In this document: positions 48,409 through 60,347 of the stretch, in pieces
Numbering within the stretch: position 1 is the stretch's first letter
Layout of the letters: the number at the start of each line of letters is the position of its first letter
Assembly: GCA_964016885.1 (NCBI GenBank)
Contig: OZ024741.1
Span: 296,422,001-296,486,000 of the forward strand
From: Eledone cirrhosa
Lineage: Eukaryota
Direction: 5' to 3'
DNA: 64,000 nucleotides
Position numbers and translations under genes: made by a program
The notes under the pieces: generated by a model
Databases searched by the model: none
What the model was told of the DNA's origin: nothing
Seen by the model: only the letters and a program-made list of their open reading frames with translations

Positions 48409-51367
48409 ATAAAAGCAAGGGAAGTTGCTTTTATCGAGAATCTAATTGTAATACGTGACGTATTCTATTCTATAGCGATTAGGTCTTCAAAATGTTTATT
48501 ATAAACATACAGAATATTTTCGAATATTCTATGTCTATATTCACATATATATCGCTATTTCAGAGCATTTATTCCAATTTCTAATTTCTGCCGGACCGGC
48601 AACCGCTCTTTCAAACCAGTTCCTGTACACAGCTAAGTATTCTATAAGTCTCTAGCTGTGTCATTCTCGATAAAAGCACTGGATATGTAGTCCTGATGAT
48701 TTCTAACAAGAATGAAACGCGTAGATTACTTCCCTTGCTTTTATCGAGAATCTAATTGTAATACGTGACGTATTCTATTCTATAGCGATTAGGTCTTCAA
48801 AATGTTTATTATAAACATACAGAATATTTTCGAATATTCTATGTCTATATTCACATATATATCGCTATTTCAGAGCATTTATTCCAATTTCTAATTTCTG
48901 CCGGACCGGCAACCGCTCTTTCAAACCAGTTCCTGTACACAGCTAAGTATTCTATAAGTCTCTAGCTGTGTCATTCTCGATAAAAGCACTGGATATGTAG
49001 TCCTGATGATTTCTAACAAGAATGAAACGCGTAGATTACTTCCCTTGCTTTTATCGAGAATCTAATTGTAATACGTGACGTATTCTATTCTATAGCGATT
49101 AGGTCTTCAAAATGTTTATTATAAACATACAGAATATTTTCGAATATTCTATGTCTATATTCACATATATATCGCTATTTCAGAGCATTTATTCCAATTT
49201 CTAATTTCTGCCGGACCGGCAACCGCTCTTTCAAACCAGTTCCTGTACACAGCTAAGTATTCTATAAGTCTCTAGCTGTGTCATTCTCGATAAAAGCACT
49301 GGATATGTAGTCCTGATGATTTCTAACAAGAATGAAACGCGTAGATTACTTCCCTTGCTTTTATCGAGAATCTAATTGTAATACGTGACGTATTCTATTC
49401 TATAGCGATTAGGTCTTCAAAATGTTTATTATAAACATACAGAATATTTTCGAATATTCTATGTCTATATTCACATATATATCGCTATTTCAGAGCATTT
49501 ATTCCAATTTCTAATTTCTGCCGGACCGGCAACCGCTCTTTCAAACCAGTTCCTGTACACAGCTAAGTATTCTATAAGTCTCTAGCTGTGTCATTCTCGA
49601 TAAAAGCACTGGATATGTAGTCCTGATGATTTCTAACAAGAATGAAACGCGTAGATTACTTCCCTTGCTTTTATCGAGAATCTAATTGTAATACGTGACG
49701 TATTCTATTCTATAGCGATTAGGTCTTCAAAATGTTTATTATAAACATACAGAATATTTTCGAATATTCTATGTCTATATTCACATATATATCGCTATTT
49801 CAGAGCATCTATTCCAATTTCTAATTTCTGCCGGACCGGCAACCGCTCTTTCAAACCAGTTCCTGTACACAGCTAAGTATTCTATAAGTCTCTAGCTGTG
49901 TCATTCTCGATAAAAGCACTGGATATGTAGTCCTGATGATTTCTAACAAGAATGAAACGCGTAGATTACTTCCCTTGATTTTATCGAGAATCTAATTGTA
50001 ATACGTGACGTATTCTATTCTATAGCGATTAGGTCTTCAAAATGTTTATTATAAACATACAGAATATTTTCGAATATTCTATGTCTATACTCACATATAT
50101 ATCGCTATTTCAGAGCATTTATTCCAATTTCTAATTTCTGCCGGACCGGCAACCGCTCTTTCAAACCAGTTCCTGTACACAGCTAAGTATTCTATAAGTC
50201 TCTAGCTGTGTCATTCTCGATAAAAGCACTGGATATGTAGTCCTGATGATTTCTAACAAGAATGAAACGCGTAGATTACTTCCCTTGCTTTTATCGAGAA
50301 TCTAATTGTAATACGTGACGTATTCTATTCTATAGCGATTAGGTCTTCAAAATGTTTATTATAAACATACAGAATATTTTCGAATATTCTATGTCTATAT
50401 TCACATATATATCGCTATTTCAGAGCATTTATTCCAATTTCTAATTTCTGCCGGACCGGCAACCGCTCTTTCAAACCAGTTCCTGTACACAGCTAAGTAT
50501 TCTATAAGTCTCTAGCTGTGTCATTCTCGATAAAAGCACTGGATATGTAGTCCTGATGATTTCTAACAAGAATGAAACGCGTAGATTACTTCCCTTGCTT
50601 TTATCGAGAATCTAATTGTAATACGTGACGTATTCTATTCTATAGCGATTAGGTCTTCAAAATGTTTATTATAAACATACAGAATATTTTCGAATATTCT
50701 ATGTCTATATTCACATATATATCGCTATTTCAGAGCATTTATTCCAATTTCTAATTTCTGCCGGACCGGCAACCGCTCTTTCAAACCAGTTCCTGTACAC
50801 AGCTAAGTATTCTATAAGTCTCTAGCTGTGTCATTCTCGATAAAAGCACTGGATATGTAGTCCTGATGATTTCTAACAAGAATGAAACGCGTAGATTACT
50901 TCCCTTGCTTTTATCGAGAATCTAATTGTAATACGTGACGTATTCTATTCTATAGCGATTAGGTCTTCAAAATGTTTATTATAAACATACAGAATATTTT
51001 CGAATATTCTATGTCTATATTCACATATATATCGCTATTTCAGAGCATTTATTCCAATTTCTAATTTCTGCCGGACCGGCAACCGCTCTTTCAAACCAGT
51101 TCCTGTACACAGCTAAGTATTCTATAAGTCTCTAGCTGTGTCATTCTCGATAAAAGCACTGGATATGTAGTCCTGATGATTTCTAACAAGAATGAAACGC
51201 GTAGATTACTTCCCTTGCTTTTATCGAGAATCTAATTGTAATACGTGACGTATTCTATTCTATAGCGATTAGGTCTTCAAAATGTTTATTATAAACATAC
51301 AGAATATTTTCGAATATTCTATGTCTATATTCACATATATATCGCTATTTCAGAGCATTTATTCCAA
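48409..51367 (+). mobile_element. Hammerhead-ribozyme tandem array 1 (retrozyme-like): ~9.5 x 310 bp plus a 17-bp inverted 5' stub
   Basis: Unit start TGCTTTTATCGAGAAT at 48426+310k. Only 3 substitutions seen (49809, 49978, 50090). Nine hammerhead cores. Confidence 0.92.
48687..48729 (+). ncRNA. Type I hammerhead ribozyme, first of 9 in array 1 (starts 48687+310k, last at 51167)
   Basis: Stem I GTAGTC/GATTAC, CTGATGA 48693-48699, stem II TTCT-AACA-AGAA, GAAA 48714-48717, palindromic stem III ACGCGT, predicted GUA cleavage after 48723. Confidence 0.88.
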
Positions 51368-51792
51368 TATATATATATATATATACATATATATATATAC
51401 ATATATATATATACATATATATATATACATATATATATATACATATATATATATACATATATATATATACATATATATATATACATATATATATATATAT
51501 ATACATATATACATATATATATATATATATATATACATATATATATATATATACATATATATATATATATATACATATAAACCTTTCAAGGATTTACACA
51601 AATCCAGCCTCCTGTCATTTCATTACATACATATATATATATATATATATATATATATATATATATATACACATATATATATATATACATATATATACAT
51701 ACATATATATACATATATATATATATATATATATATATACATATATATATATATATACATATATATACATACATATATATACATATATATAT

Positions 51793-57689: not shown

Positions 57690-60347
57690 AAAGCACTGGA
57701 TATGTAGTCCTGATGATTTCTAACAAGAATGAAACGCGTAGATTACTTCCCTTGCTTTTATCGAGAATCTAATTGTAATACGTGACGTATTCTATTCTAT
57801 AGCGATTAGGTCTTCAAAATGTTTATTATAAACATACAGAATATTTTCGAATATTCTATGTCTATATTCACATATATATCGCTATTTCAGAGCATTTATT
57901 CCAATTTCTAATTTCTGCCGGACCGGCAACCGCTCTTTCAAACCAGTTCCTGTACACAGCTAAGTATTCTATAAGTCTCTAGCTGTGTCATTCTCGATAA
58001 AAGCACTGGATATGTAGTCCTGATGATTTCTAACAAGAATGAAACGCGTAGATTACTTCCCTTGCTTTTATCGAGAATCTAATTGTAATACGTGACGTAT
58101 TCTATTCTATAGCGATTAGGTCTTCAAAATGTTTATTATAAACATACAGAATATTTTCGAATATTCTATGTCTATATTCACATATATATCGCTATTTCAG
58201 AGCATTTATTCCAATTTCTAATTTCTGCCGGACCGGCAACCGCTCTTTCAAACCAGTTCCTGTACACAGCTAAGTATTCTATAAGTCTCTAGCTGTGTCA
58301 TTCTCGATAAAAGCACTGGATATGTAGTCCTGATGATTTCTAACAAGAATGAAACGCGTAGATTACTTCCCTTGCTTTTATCGAGAATCTAATTGTAATA
58401 CGTGACGTATTCTATTCTATAGCGATTAGGTCTTCAAAATGTTTATTATAAACATACAGAATATTTTCGAATATTCTATGTCTATATTCACATATATATC
58501 GCTATTTCAGAGCATTTATTCCAATTTCTAATTTCTGCCGGACCGGCAACCGCTCTTTCAAACCAGTTCCTGTACACAGCTAAGTATTCTATAAGTCTCT
58601 AGCTGTGTCATTCTCGATAAAAGCACTGGATATGTAGTCCTGATGATTTCTAACAAGAATGAAACGCGTAGATTACTTCCCTTGCTTTTATCGAGAATCT
58701 AATTGTAATACGTGACGTATTCTATTCTATAGCGATTAGGTCTTCAAAATGTTTATTATAAACATACAGAATATTTTCGAATATTCTATGTCTATATTCA
58801 CATATATATCGCTATTTCAGAGCATTTATTCCAATTTCTAATTTCTGCCGGACCGGCAACCGCTCTTTCAAACCAGTTCCTGTACACAGCTAAGTATTCT
58901 ATAAGTCTCTAGCTGTGTCATTCTCGATAAAAGCACTGGATATGTAGTCCTGATGATTTCTAACAAGAATGAAACGCGTAGATTACTTCCCTTGCTTTTA
59001 TCGAGAATCTAATTGTAATACGTGACGTATTCTATTCTATAGCGATTAGGTCTTCAAAATGTTTATTATAAACATACAGAATATTTTCGAATATTCTATG
59101 TCTATATTCACATATATATCGCTATTTCAGAGCATTTATTCCAATTTCTAATTTCTGCCGGACCGGCAACCGCTCTTTCAAACCAGTTCCTGTACACAGC
59201 TAAGTATTCTATAAGTCTCTAGCTGTGTCATTCTCGATAAAAGCACTGGATATGTAGTCCTGATGATTTCTAACAAGAATGAAACGCGTAGATTACTTCC
59301 CTTGCTTTTATCGAGAATCTAATTGTAATACGTGACGTATTCTATTCTATAGCGATTAGGTCTTCAAAATGTTTATTATAAACATACAGAATATTTTCGA
59401 ATATTCTATGTCTATATTCACATATATATCGCTATTTCAGAGCATTTATTCCAATTTCTAATTTCTGCCGGACCGGCAACCGCTCTTTCAAACCAGTTCC
59501 TGTACACAGCTAAGTATTCTATAAGTCTCTAGCTGTGTCATTCTCGATAAAAGCACTGGATATGTAGTCCTGATGATTTCTAACAAGAATGAAACGCGTA
59601 GATTACTTCCCTTGCTTTTATCGAGAATCTAATTGTAATACGTGACGTATTCTATTCTATAGCGATTAGGTCTTCAAAATGTTTATTATAAACATACAGA
59701 ATATTTTCGAATATTCTATGTCTATATTCACATATATATCGCTATTTCAGAGCATTTATTCCAATTTCTAATTTCTGCCGGACCGGCAACCGCTCTTTCA
59801 AACCAGTTCCTGTACACAGCTAAGTATTCTATAAGTCTCTAGCTGTGTCATTCTCGATAAAAGCACTGGATATGTAGTCCTGATGATTTCTAACAAGAAT
59901 GAAACGCGTAGATTACTTCCCTTGCTTTTATCGAGAATCTAATTGTAATACGTGACGTATTCTATTCTATAGCGATTAGGTCTTCAAAATGTTTATTATA
60001 AACATACAGAATATTTTCGAATATTCTATGTCTATATTCACATATATATCGCTATTTCAGAGCATTTATTCCAATTTCTAATTTCTGCCGGACCGGCAAC
60101 CGCTCTTTCAAACCAGTTCCTGTACACAGCTAAGTATTCTATAAGTCTCTAGCTGTGTCATTCTCGATAAAAGCACTGGATATGTAGTCCTGATGATTTC
60201 TAACAAGAATGAAACGCGTAGATTACTTCCCTTGCTTTTATCGAGAATCTAATTGTAATACGTGACGTATTCTATTCTATAGCGATTAGGTCTTCAAAAT
60301 GTTTATTATAAACATACAGAATATTTTCGAATATTCTATGTCTATAT
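57689..60347 (+). mobile_element. Hammerhead array 2, forward arm: ~8.6 x 310 bp, 9 ribozymes (57704+310k, last at 60184)
   Basis: Same unit as array 1; no differences seen by eye. Confidence 0.92.

Follow-up and report, generated by a model that had tools for sequence, protein, structure and literature searches.

Animal retrozymes have been described from corals, mussels and the axolotl as tandem units of 150-450 bp with one type I hammerhead ribozyme each, low GC content and no encoded protein, which occur in thousands of copies and yield a self-paired monomer (main text of PMC7229834; Cervera and de la Pena 2020). The same text proposes that tandem cDNA is made from a primed circle and names Penelope-like elements (PLEs) as candidate drivers. 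These features are shared by a 310-bp unit that forms two arrays, between positions 48409 and 60347, in a stretch of 64,000 nucleotides (hereafter the window) from Eledone cirrhosa (assembly GCA_964016885.1, contig OZ024741.1, positions 296,422,001 to 296,486,000, forward strand). It is fairly probable that this unit belongs to a young non-coding retrozyme inserted into (TA)n as paired arrays of the 310-bp unit in mirror-image arrangement, for which a PLE reverse transcriptase (RT)/endonuclease primed both cut ends on the same RNA, probably a monomer circle.

Within the hammerhead, stem III resembles that of HHR_Amex1 and the U.U mismatch of stem II that of HHR_Amex2 (PMC7229834). Cleavage and circles were demonstrated for the retrozymes of that study, whereas both are predicted here, and its main text contains neither the words "inverted", "rolling" and "cephalopod" nor evidence of fixed starts, paired ends or a single template. 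Vertebrate retrozymes (Li, Clavereau and Pollet 2026, 10.64898/2026.07.22.740005) are alike in unit size, in their co-occurrence with PLEs and in a hammerhead related to a PLE pseudo-long terminal repeat (pLTR). The available text of that work argues from co-occurrence and pLTR phylogeny, does not settle on a mechanism and suggests local amplification, whereas in the present family the ends and variants record the insertion step and no full pLTR homologue was found.

Endonuclease-positive (EN+) PLEs are a second point of comparison. Their insertions, as described in the available parts of PMC8557442 and PMC3846280, carry an inverted 5' copy, a tail of 30-40 bp at one end, a bias for (TA)n targets and microhomology at the junction, all of which have counterparts here. 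On AT-rich DNA the purified anole PLE protein, a predicted dimer, nicks each strand and extends both, beginning at two adjacent internal RNA sites that delimit the tail (PMC11167929, as far as its text is available), a scheme that the anatomy of the present insertions matches. Unlike EN+ PLEs, the 310-bp unit has no open reading frame (ORF) and the arms are multimers of a single 310-nt unit; a strict pairing of one start site per strand is not stated for EN+ PLEs in these texts, and the in vitro starts were alike between strands (PMC11167929). Newt satellite 2 also has a hammerhead in a repeat of about 330 bp, with a weak helix III and efficient cleavage as a dimer only (PMC6155905, PMC7229834, available text), but differs from the short, dispersed, two-armed arrays with defined ends found here. 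In the literature, subscription journals and supplements excepted, neither two-armed retrozyme insertions nor a retrozyme from an octopus-like host was found. The retrozyme class is known; paired start sites, two arms and a single-template anatomy are absent from the texts of PMC7229834 and 10.64898/2026.07.22.740005 as available.

Arrays and repeat unit

The arrays, the unit and the adjoining target runs are as follows, unit positions being numbered from the predicted cut (position 1 = 48724).

48051..48410, no strand: (TA)n target run left of array 1
48409..48425, minus strand: inverted stub of 17 nt (unit positions 5-21), the inner end of array 1, linking its arm to the left (TA)n; read directly
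48425..51368, plus strand: array 1, a single 9.5-unit arm whose outer end runs into (TA)n from site A (165 nt beyond the predicted cut)
48687..48729, plus strand: first type I hammerhead motif, recurring each 310 bp; predicted cut after GUA at 48723
48724..49033, plus strand: monomer from cut site to cut site, 310 nt, 34% GC
48850..48893, plus strand: the fixed outer-end sites of one unit, B at positions about 127-139 and A at 165-170, which enclose the Penelope-type tail
56903..57689, minus strand: array 2, inverted arm of 2.5 units with 2 hammerheads, meeting (TA)n at position 169 (site A), its outer end
57689..60347, plus strand: array 2, direct arm of 8.6 units with 9 hammerheads, meeting (TA)n at position 127 (site B), its outer end
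51369-51793, 56298-56902 and from 60348: further (TA)n runs

The unit motif is GTAGTC-CTGATGA-TTTCTAACAAGAAT-GAAA-CGCGTA-GATTAC and recurs with a period of 310 bp from 48687, giving nine plus-strand copies in array 1 and, in array 2, two on the minus strand (CTGATGA at 57412 and 57102) and nine on the plus strand, 20 in total. The initial annotation had counted 9 and 2+9 copies of near-identical units, and these numbers were right; its description of array 2 as a plain tandem was not, the two arms being an inverted pair joined head to head with a junction overlap of 1 nt. Array 1 has three mismatches to the unit across 2944 bp and array 2 none up to its ends. Every array end in the window adjoins (TA)n.

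G or C accounts for 106 of the 310 bases, and no ORF of 80 aa lies inside the 310-bp units. The layout is non-coding and without long terminal repeats (LTRs), the search not extending to a primer-binding site or polypurine tract. Two assignments were rejected: a plant-type LTR retrozyme would have a type III hammerhead in two LTRs, in place of the type I motif in tandem units seen here, and an autonomous Penelope-like element would have an RT/GIY-YIG ORF.

Two-armed insertions in the genome

Copy number was determined by exact pattern search of the genome, with the reversed motif as control. The exact 43-nt motif occurs 4,177 times and its reversed control not at all; the commonest A end alone has 987 exact occurrences, and 766 forward matches lead to an estimate of about 1,500 insertions. 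The initial annotation had suspected a young retrozyme family that might be mistaken for satellite DNA, and the 4,177 motifs and at least 987 insertion ends are in agreement with it. Classical satellite DNA is excluded by dispersed arrays, median arms of 3-4 units and fixed outer ends. The family is young and dispersed, with about a thousand or more insertions, two of which are the arrays in the window.

Outer ends are confined to the sites A and B, each into (TA)n, and insertions were examined in two samples. The first comprised the window and contig C1 up to 80.3 Mb (one B end left out, one duplicated copy of locus L070 dropped) and gave the combination A+B in all 42 two-armed insertions, 23 in one orientation and 19 in the other, besides 11 one-armed insertions. 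Because the pairings had been seen before loci were fetched, those of the second sample were chosen with regard to their A end only, as the first 60 among 70 such ends listed past 80.3 Mb. The other end was B in 54 of 54 two-armed insertions and A in none, the remaining loci being three one-armed insertions and three that ran past the end of their stretch. Altogether A+B was found in 96/96 two-armed insertions, with an offset of 26-43 nt between the two sites, whereas an independent choice of sites would be expected to give A+A in about half.

The median arm has 3-4 units and one arm exceeds 30, arm lengths at A and B being alike (p 0.21) and weakly correlated (rho 0.27). Pure TA of at least 6 nt stands on both flanks in 84 of 96 insertions, and the search for empty insertion sites yielded none. 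Since both arms have more than one unit in 80 of the 96, L1-type twin priming on a single linear monomer was rejected.

Inverted arms might also arise as fold-back artefacts of sequencing or assembly, an explanation to which we give hardly any credence. Palindromic (TA)n arrays are hard to assemble, and L070 is apparently duplicated beside an N gap; however, the two arms differ in their fixed end site, in their flank and in their length, and minus-to-plus joints at several other positions are present in contigs of X2, a sequencing run of host-type DNA (possibly the assembly's own sample).

One template for both arms

A variant in at least two units was found in 71 of 98 arm pairs, and in 68 of these 71 the arms agree at every such site; counted by site, they agree at 138 of 143, with a chance agreement of about 0.11. 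The exceptions are L073, L205 and L196, and 32 haplotypes were distinguished among 95 insertions. Alignment of the arms, begun at the outer ends, covered 270 unit overlaps; 75 of the substitutions in them were unshared, and sharing in register was seen at L179 (one site) and at L196, where both arms read one haplotype for exactly two turns from the outer ends and then switch to another. The alignment at L196 and L179, together with the agreement of the arms, therefore indicates that both arms read one RNA in register, and L196 is the most direct sign that both primers were on it.

Amplification of the arms in place by unequal crossing-over, after a short PLE-type inverted insertion, would make the family a retro-seeded young satellite. 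Such an origin accounts for variants common to both arms, local amplification has been suggested for vertebrate retrozymes (available text of 10.64898/2026.07.22.740005), and a few long arms do share variants between units, one of them with period 7. We nevertheless regard it as improbable: mutation-free insertions are already multi-unit in both arms (window array 2, L031 and L038), the 112 private substitutions are single-unit with few shared, the in-register switch at L196 is impossible by independent local amplification of two arms, and a seed of several units would itself have called for a template that was multimeric or circular.

Among the 95 junctions resolved between arms, 65 are clean and 30 have extra bases, some of the latter being mapping artefacts of nearby mutations. 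Microhomology of at least 2 nt is present in 38 of the 65 clean junctions against a null of 18% (p 6e-13). Inner ends fall within 5 nt of the cut in 6 of 190 cases, with 6.1 expected. The R2 element is able to jump from the 5' end of one template to the 3' end of the next, and cleaved linear monomers copied with such jumps would give tandem arms with no circle; L196 would be explained by a simultaneous change of monomer in the two subunits. This possibility appears slightly more remote still than local amplification, as inner ends show no excess at the cut, cut-site junctions between units in the window are all exact, and jumps among 32 haplotypes would make mosaic arms, which are seen in very few insertions.

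Several loci add observations on junctions and variants. L050 and L075, which have different haplotypes, have an identical inner junction (positions 167/256), which suggests recurrent stop or microhomology sites. At L036 (3099-3370), 272 bp of unrelated GC-rich sequence without a match among the loci examined were captured between the arms. At both L073 and L075, one arm is fixed for A276G while its counterpart is mosaic; ambiguous reading of an inosine, or editing of the template as it was being copied, could account for this.

Penelope-like elements and candidate partners

At least two PLE families with intact frames exist in the genome, and both have truncated copies in the window.

47562..48048, minus strand: 5'-truncated end of autonomous Penelope-like family A (PLE-A), with a related hammerhead (CTGATGA at 47620) and a short end; candidate partner, outside the arrays
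44961..47043, plus strand: 5'-truncated copy of autonomous Penelope-like family B (PLE-B), with the RT C-terminus and GIY-YIG; second candidate partner

In PLE-B, RT and GIY-YIG lie in a frame of 784 aa, and 108 copies were scored at 98-100%. The family is very young, with many intact frames of this length, tandem and inverted copies and a tail of about 60 nt; a second frame of up to 455 aa lies upstream (L142/143, L145). PLE-A has a 758-aa frame at L140 that starts behind its hammerhead. Its assignment is based on YRDD and GIY-YIG-like motifs, on a BLASTP match to PLE-B (E 1e-8) and on 1,403 homologues, one of them listed with PF01541; the copy examined has no Pfam match. Pattern search gave 13,451 PLE-A matches, some counted more than once; the family has a long TA-rich 3' region, a tail of about 67 nt and many tiny inverted pLTR pairs. 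In the inverted PLE-A pairs examined, one short and one long end were found in 13 of 13. The partner search covered these two PLE families, and no pLTR match beyond the hammerhead was found; an exclusion-pattern search for an autonomous partner led instead to a sister retrozyme family.

The insertions of the 310-bp unit have an inverted arm, a tail at one end, a (TA)n target and microhomology at the junction. That PLE machinery is behind them is well supported because this anatomy matches that of known PLEs and because PLE-A pairs follow the same end rule. Mobilisation by Penelope-like enzymes, which the initial annotation had mentioned for metazoan non-LTR retrozymes, is in accordance with the PLE signature in both sets of ends (A+B in 96/96, and short plus long in the 13 PLE-A pairs).

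Hammerhead, predicted folding and signs of an RNA stage

The hammerhead motif has a 6-bp stem I, a 4-bp stem II under a U.U mismatch, an intact CUGAUGA/GAAA core and the triplet GUA, so that the core, NUH triplet and stems I-III with stem I open, which define the type I class, are all found. In the monomer, stem III is 1 bp closed by CGCG; in a dimer it would reach 6 bp via the palindrome ACGCGU, whose self-pairing was computed at -9.5 kcal/mol. No Rfam match in the window reached the gathering level; the best weak one, Hammerhead_HH9, aligns across the intact core with 19.2 bits (gathering threshold 52, E 0.058). The earlier description of 20 complete ribozymes, for which a search with type I hammerhead models had been advised, is thus right about 20 motifs with intact cores, but "complete" overstates the case, given the predicted need for a dimer. 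The ribozyme is predicted to be of a weak kind that needs a dimer for cleavage. Axolotl motifs share the weak stem III and the U.U mismatch, and cleave efficiently only as dimers (PMC7229834, available text). The predicted fold of the circular monomer has -67.8 kcal/mol, against -47.1 +/- 4.8 in 200 shuffles (z -4.3); the antisense strand has an equal z, and folding therefore gives no choice of strand.

Transmitted variants spare the catalytic core, with 0 of 34 in its 12 bases (p about 0.03), and are enriched in the 43-nt ribozyme as a whole (11 of 34, p 0.005), where, as read from the motif, they sit on N7 or loop II or keep or restore pairs. Among private substitutions, 4 of 112 fall in the core. 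On the RNA strand, A>G makes up 10 of 30 transmitted and 8 of 112 private substitutions (p 6e-4), and transmitted A>G outnumber T>C by 10 to 4 (p 0.04); either editing or tolerance of G.U pairs would give this excess.

Run X18, whose kind is not on record, has the same organism label as X2 and comes from a different sample. It has A>G at 8 sense and 4 antisense unit positions, most of them without support in X2, and its contigs, which are blind to RNA size, strand and circularity, have 11-18 differences within about 100 nt. At 12 of 12 of these A>G positions the 5' neighbour is U or A (background 65%, p 0.005), and ADAR enzymes prefer U or A 5' of the edited A. The clusters in X18 contigs may represent edited double-stranded transcripts. 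Two of the edited sites, A304 and A310, are core bases that remain unchanged in all transmitted variants.

Sister family, neighbouring elements and other sequencing runs

The sister retrozyme family is older, with a unit of about 320 bp that is colinear with the 310-bp unit and gave 1,791 pattern matches; conservation between the two is highest around the tail, between sites B and A. Its loci at L149-L178 (e.g., L150 and L159; first L133:600-1480) have the same tail block and a different hammerhead. In 21 matched loci the core pair 3-8 is U-A in 15, C-G in five and C-A in one (nine of 30 were unmatched, some overlapping), and the two positions change in concert; like the sparing of the core by transmitted variants, this bears only indirectly on self-cleavage. 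A 163-bp tandem derivative of the sister family at L174-L176 (G000:C1:56078537-56078880) has no hammerhead and keeps the tail block and an A-like end in (TA)n; it is possibly a ribozyme-less template of the same enzyme. The flanks of several loci contain at least four further families of type I hammerhead motifs, and TA-targeting elements cluster and nest within shared runs.

One neighbouring element in the window, overlooked in the initial annotation, was set aside as unrelated to the arrays.

52814-56294, plus strand: long interspersed nuclear element (LINE) between the arrays, with endonuclease (APE), RT and PHD finger, two in-frame stops and a (GAT)n tail

This young LINE has a further fragment at 43960-44913, and just upstream of it a 150-bp sequence is found in two copies, 166 bp apart and 98.7% alike (51793-52108). 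At 51577-51625 lies the end of a further palindromic element, near-perfect, about 470 bp long and flanked by TA, which occurs at several loci, among them L076:5357-5828 and L225.

Between 76 and 100% of the words of the 310-bp unit were also found in 20 runs under 17 organism labels, with no RNA run listed as containing the unit, and 8 of the 24 listed runs were mapped to it. X2 has the unique flank and a unit depth of about 2e5. X1, X3, X8, X4 and X17 have a depth of 10-128 with the unique flank absent; in X4, other host repeats are several hundred- to 1,500-fold under X2. Raw DNA of organism J (X21, 1.9 Gb) has zero reads over the unit body. For the 8 of 24 runs mapped, trace carry-over of a very high-copy repeat is a simpler reading of low-depth occurrence than transfer.

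Circular monomer or long transcript

A further explanation is that twin priming by a PLE took place on a long uncleaved multimeric transcript of a genomic array, with both primers starting in one unit and reading toward the 5' end of this linear RNA. The ribozyme is weak and of the dimer type, the anole PLE works mainly on uncleaved RNA (PMC11167929, available text), inner ends show no preference for the cut site, and long double-stranded transcripts are suggested by X18; the switch after two turns in both arms of L196 and the one-unit variant in register at L179 are also in its favor, a linear multimer in register explaining both at least as simply as a circle. On the other hand, 34 variants fixed through all units in 32 haplotypes would require a monomer bottleneck, single-unit substitutions in the 270 overlaps are unshared rather than shared by 75 to 1, the length of a daughter would be capped by that of its parent although arms reach at least 30 units, and transmitted variants spare the catalytic core. 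We therefore consider a long transcript unlikely, though still to be reckoned with; the fixed variants and the long arms are best explained by a monomer circle.

Other points weigh against a circle copied by a PLE enzyme. Circle, monomer and cleavage are predicted rather than observed, the catalytic fold of the monomer was computed at 6.7 kcal/mol above its best fold, and only one of nine Xenopus retrozyme dimers cleaved in vitro (10.64898/2026.07.22.740005, available text). The likeness of PLE-A to the unit extends over 25 of 28 nt in the hammerhead only, a score reached by 4 of 300 shuffles, with nothing significant beyond it; PLE-B has no similarity to the unit, and the tails of both families exceed the 26-43 nt offset of the retrozyme. 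The two samples include 14 one-armed insertions, (TA)n masks target-site duplications, L073 and L205 differ between their arms, and later local exchange occurred in some long arms (L034/35, L036, L056).

Proposed course of insertion and implications

At the sequence level the unit has the features of a metazoan non-LTR retrozyme, as had been proposed at first: dispersed, non-coding 310-bp units with a type I motif and 34% GC, and a self-paired monomer, RNA cleavage and a circle as predicted properties. Arrays would be transcribed, to judge from the editing-like changes in X18 and the RNA-strand-biased variants, after which adjacent hammerheads are predicted to pair by the ACGCGU palindrome and cleave as dimers, with ligation of the monomer into a circle. 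A (TA)n run would then receive a nick in each strand from a PLE protein, likely dimeric; the target is directly visible in the insertions and the enzyme is suggested by their anatomy. Copying would begin at site A from one DNA end and, 26-43 nt away, at site B from its counterpart, as the observed positions and pairing indicate. From each end it would go round the template and across the cut site, for as many as 30 turns or more; rolling is proposed on the basis of the arm lengths and the variants common to both arms, which are observed. The cDNA ends would finally join via 1-6 nt of microhomology or short templated patches, both of which are seen at the junctions.

A more specific reading, which we put forward tentatively, is a double rolling-circle form of target-primed reverse transcription, in which a Penelope dimer would work on one ribozyme-made circle of 310 nt with one start site per subunit, both subunits rolling in step, as the simultaneous template change in the arms of L196 would suggest, and A-to-I edits of the RNA would be written into the genome.

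It has been assumed that animal retrozymes are copied from circles by PLE enzymes, the previous support in the available texts being co-occurrence and pLTR similarity; the roughly one hundred insertions mapped here supply start sites, target, pairing and template identity. The one-site-per-strand rule, found both in the retrozyme and in an autonomous PLE, constrains the origin of the inverted-repeat-plus-tail structure of PLEs. With the 310-nt RNA and two intact PLE ORFs, both questions could be tested in vitro, and a compact RNA that directs two-ended insertion of multimers at (TA)n may be of interest for RNA-templated genome writing. If the double rolling-circle reading is true, the PLE cycle and the copying of circular RNA into DNA would both have left their in vivo record in these insertions.

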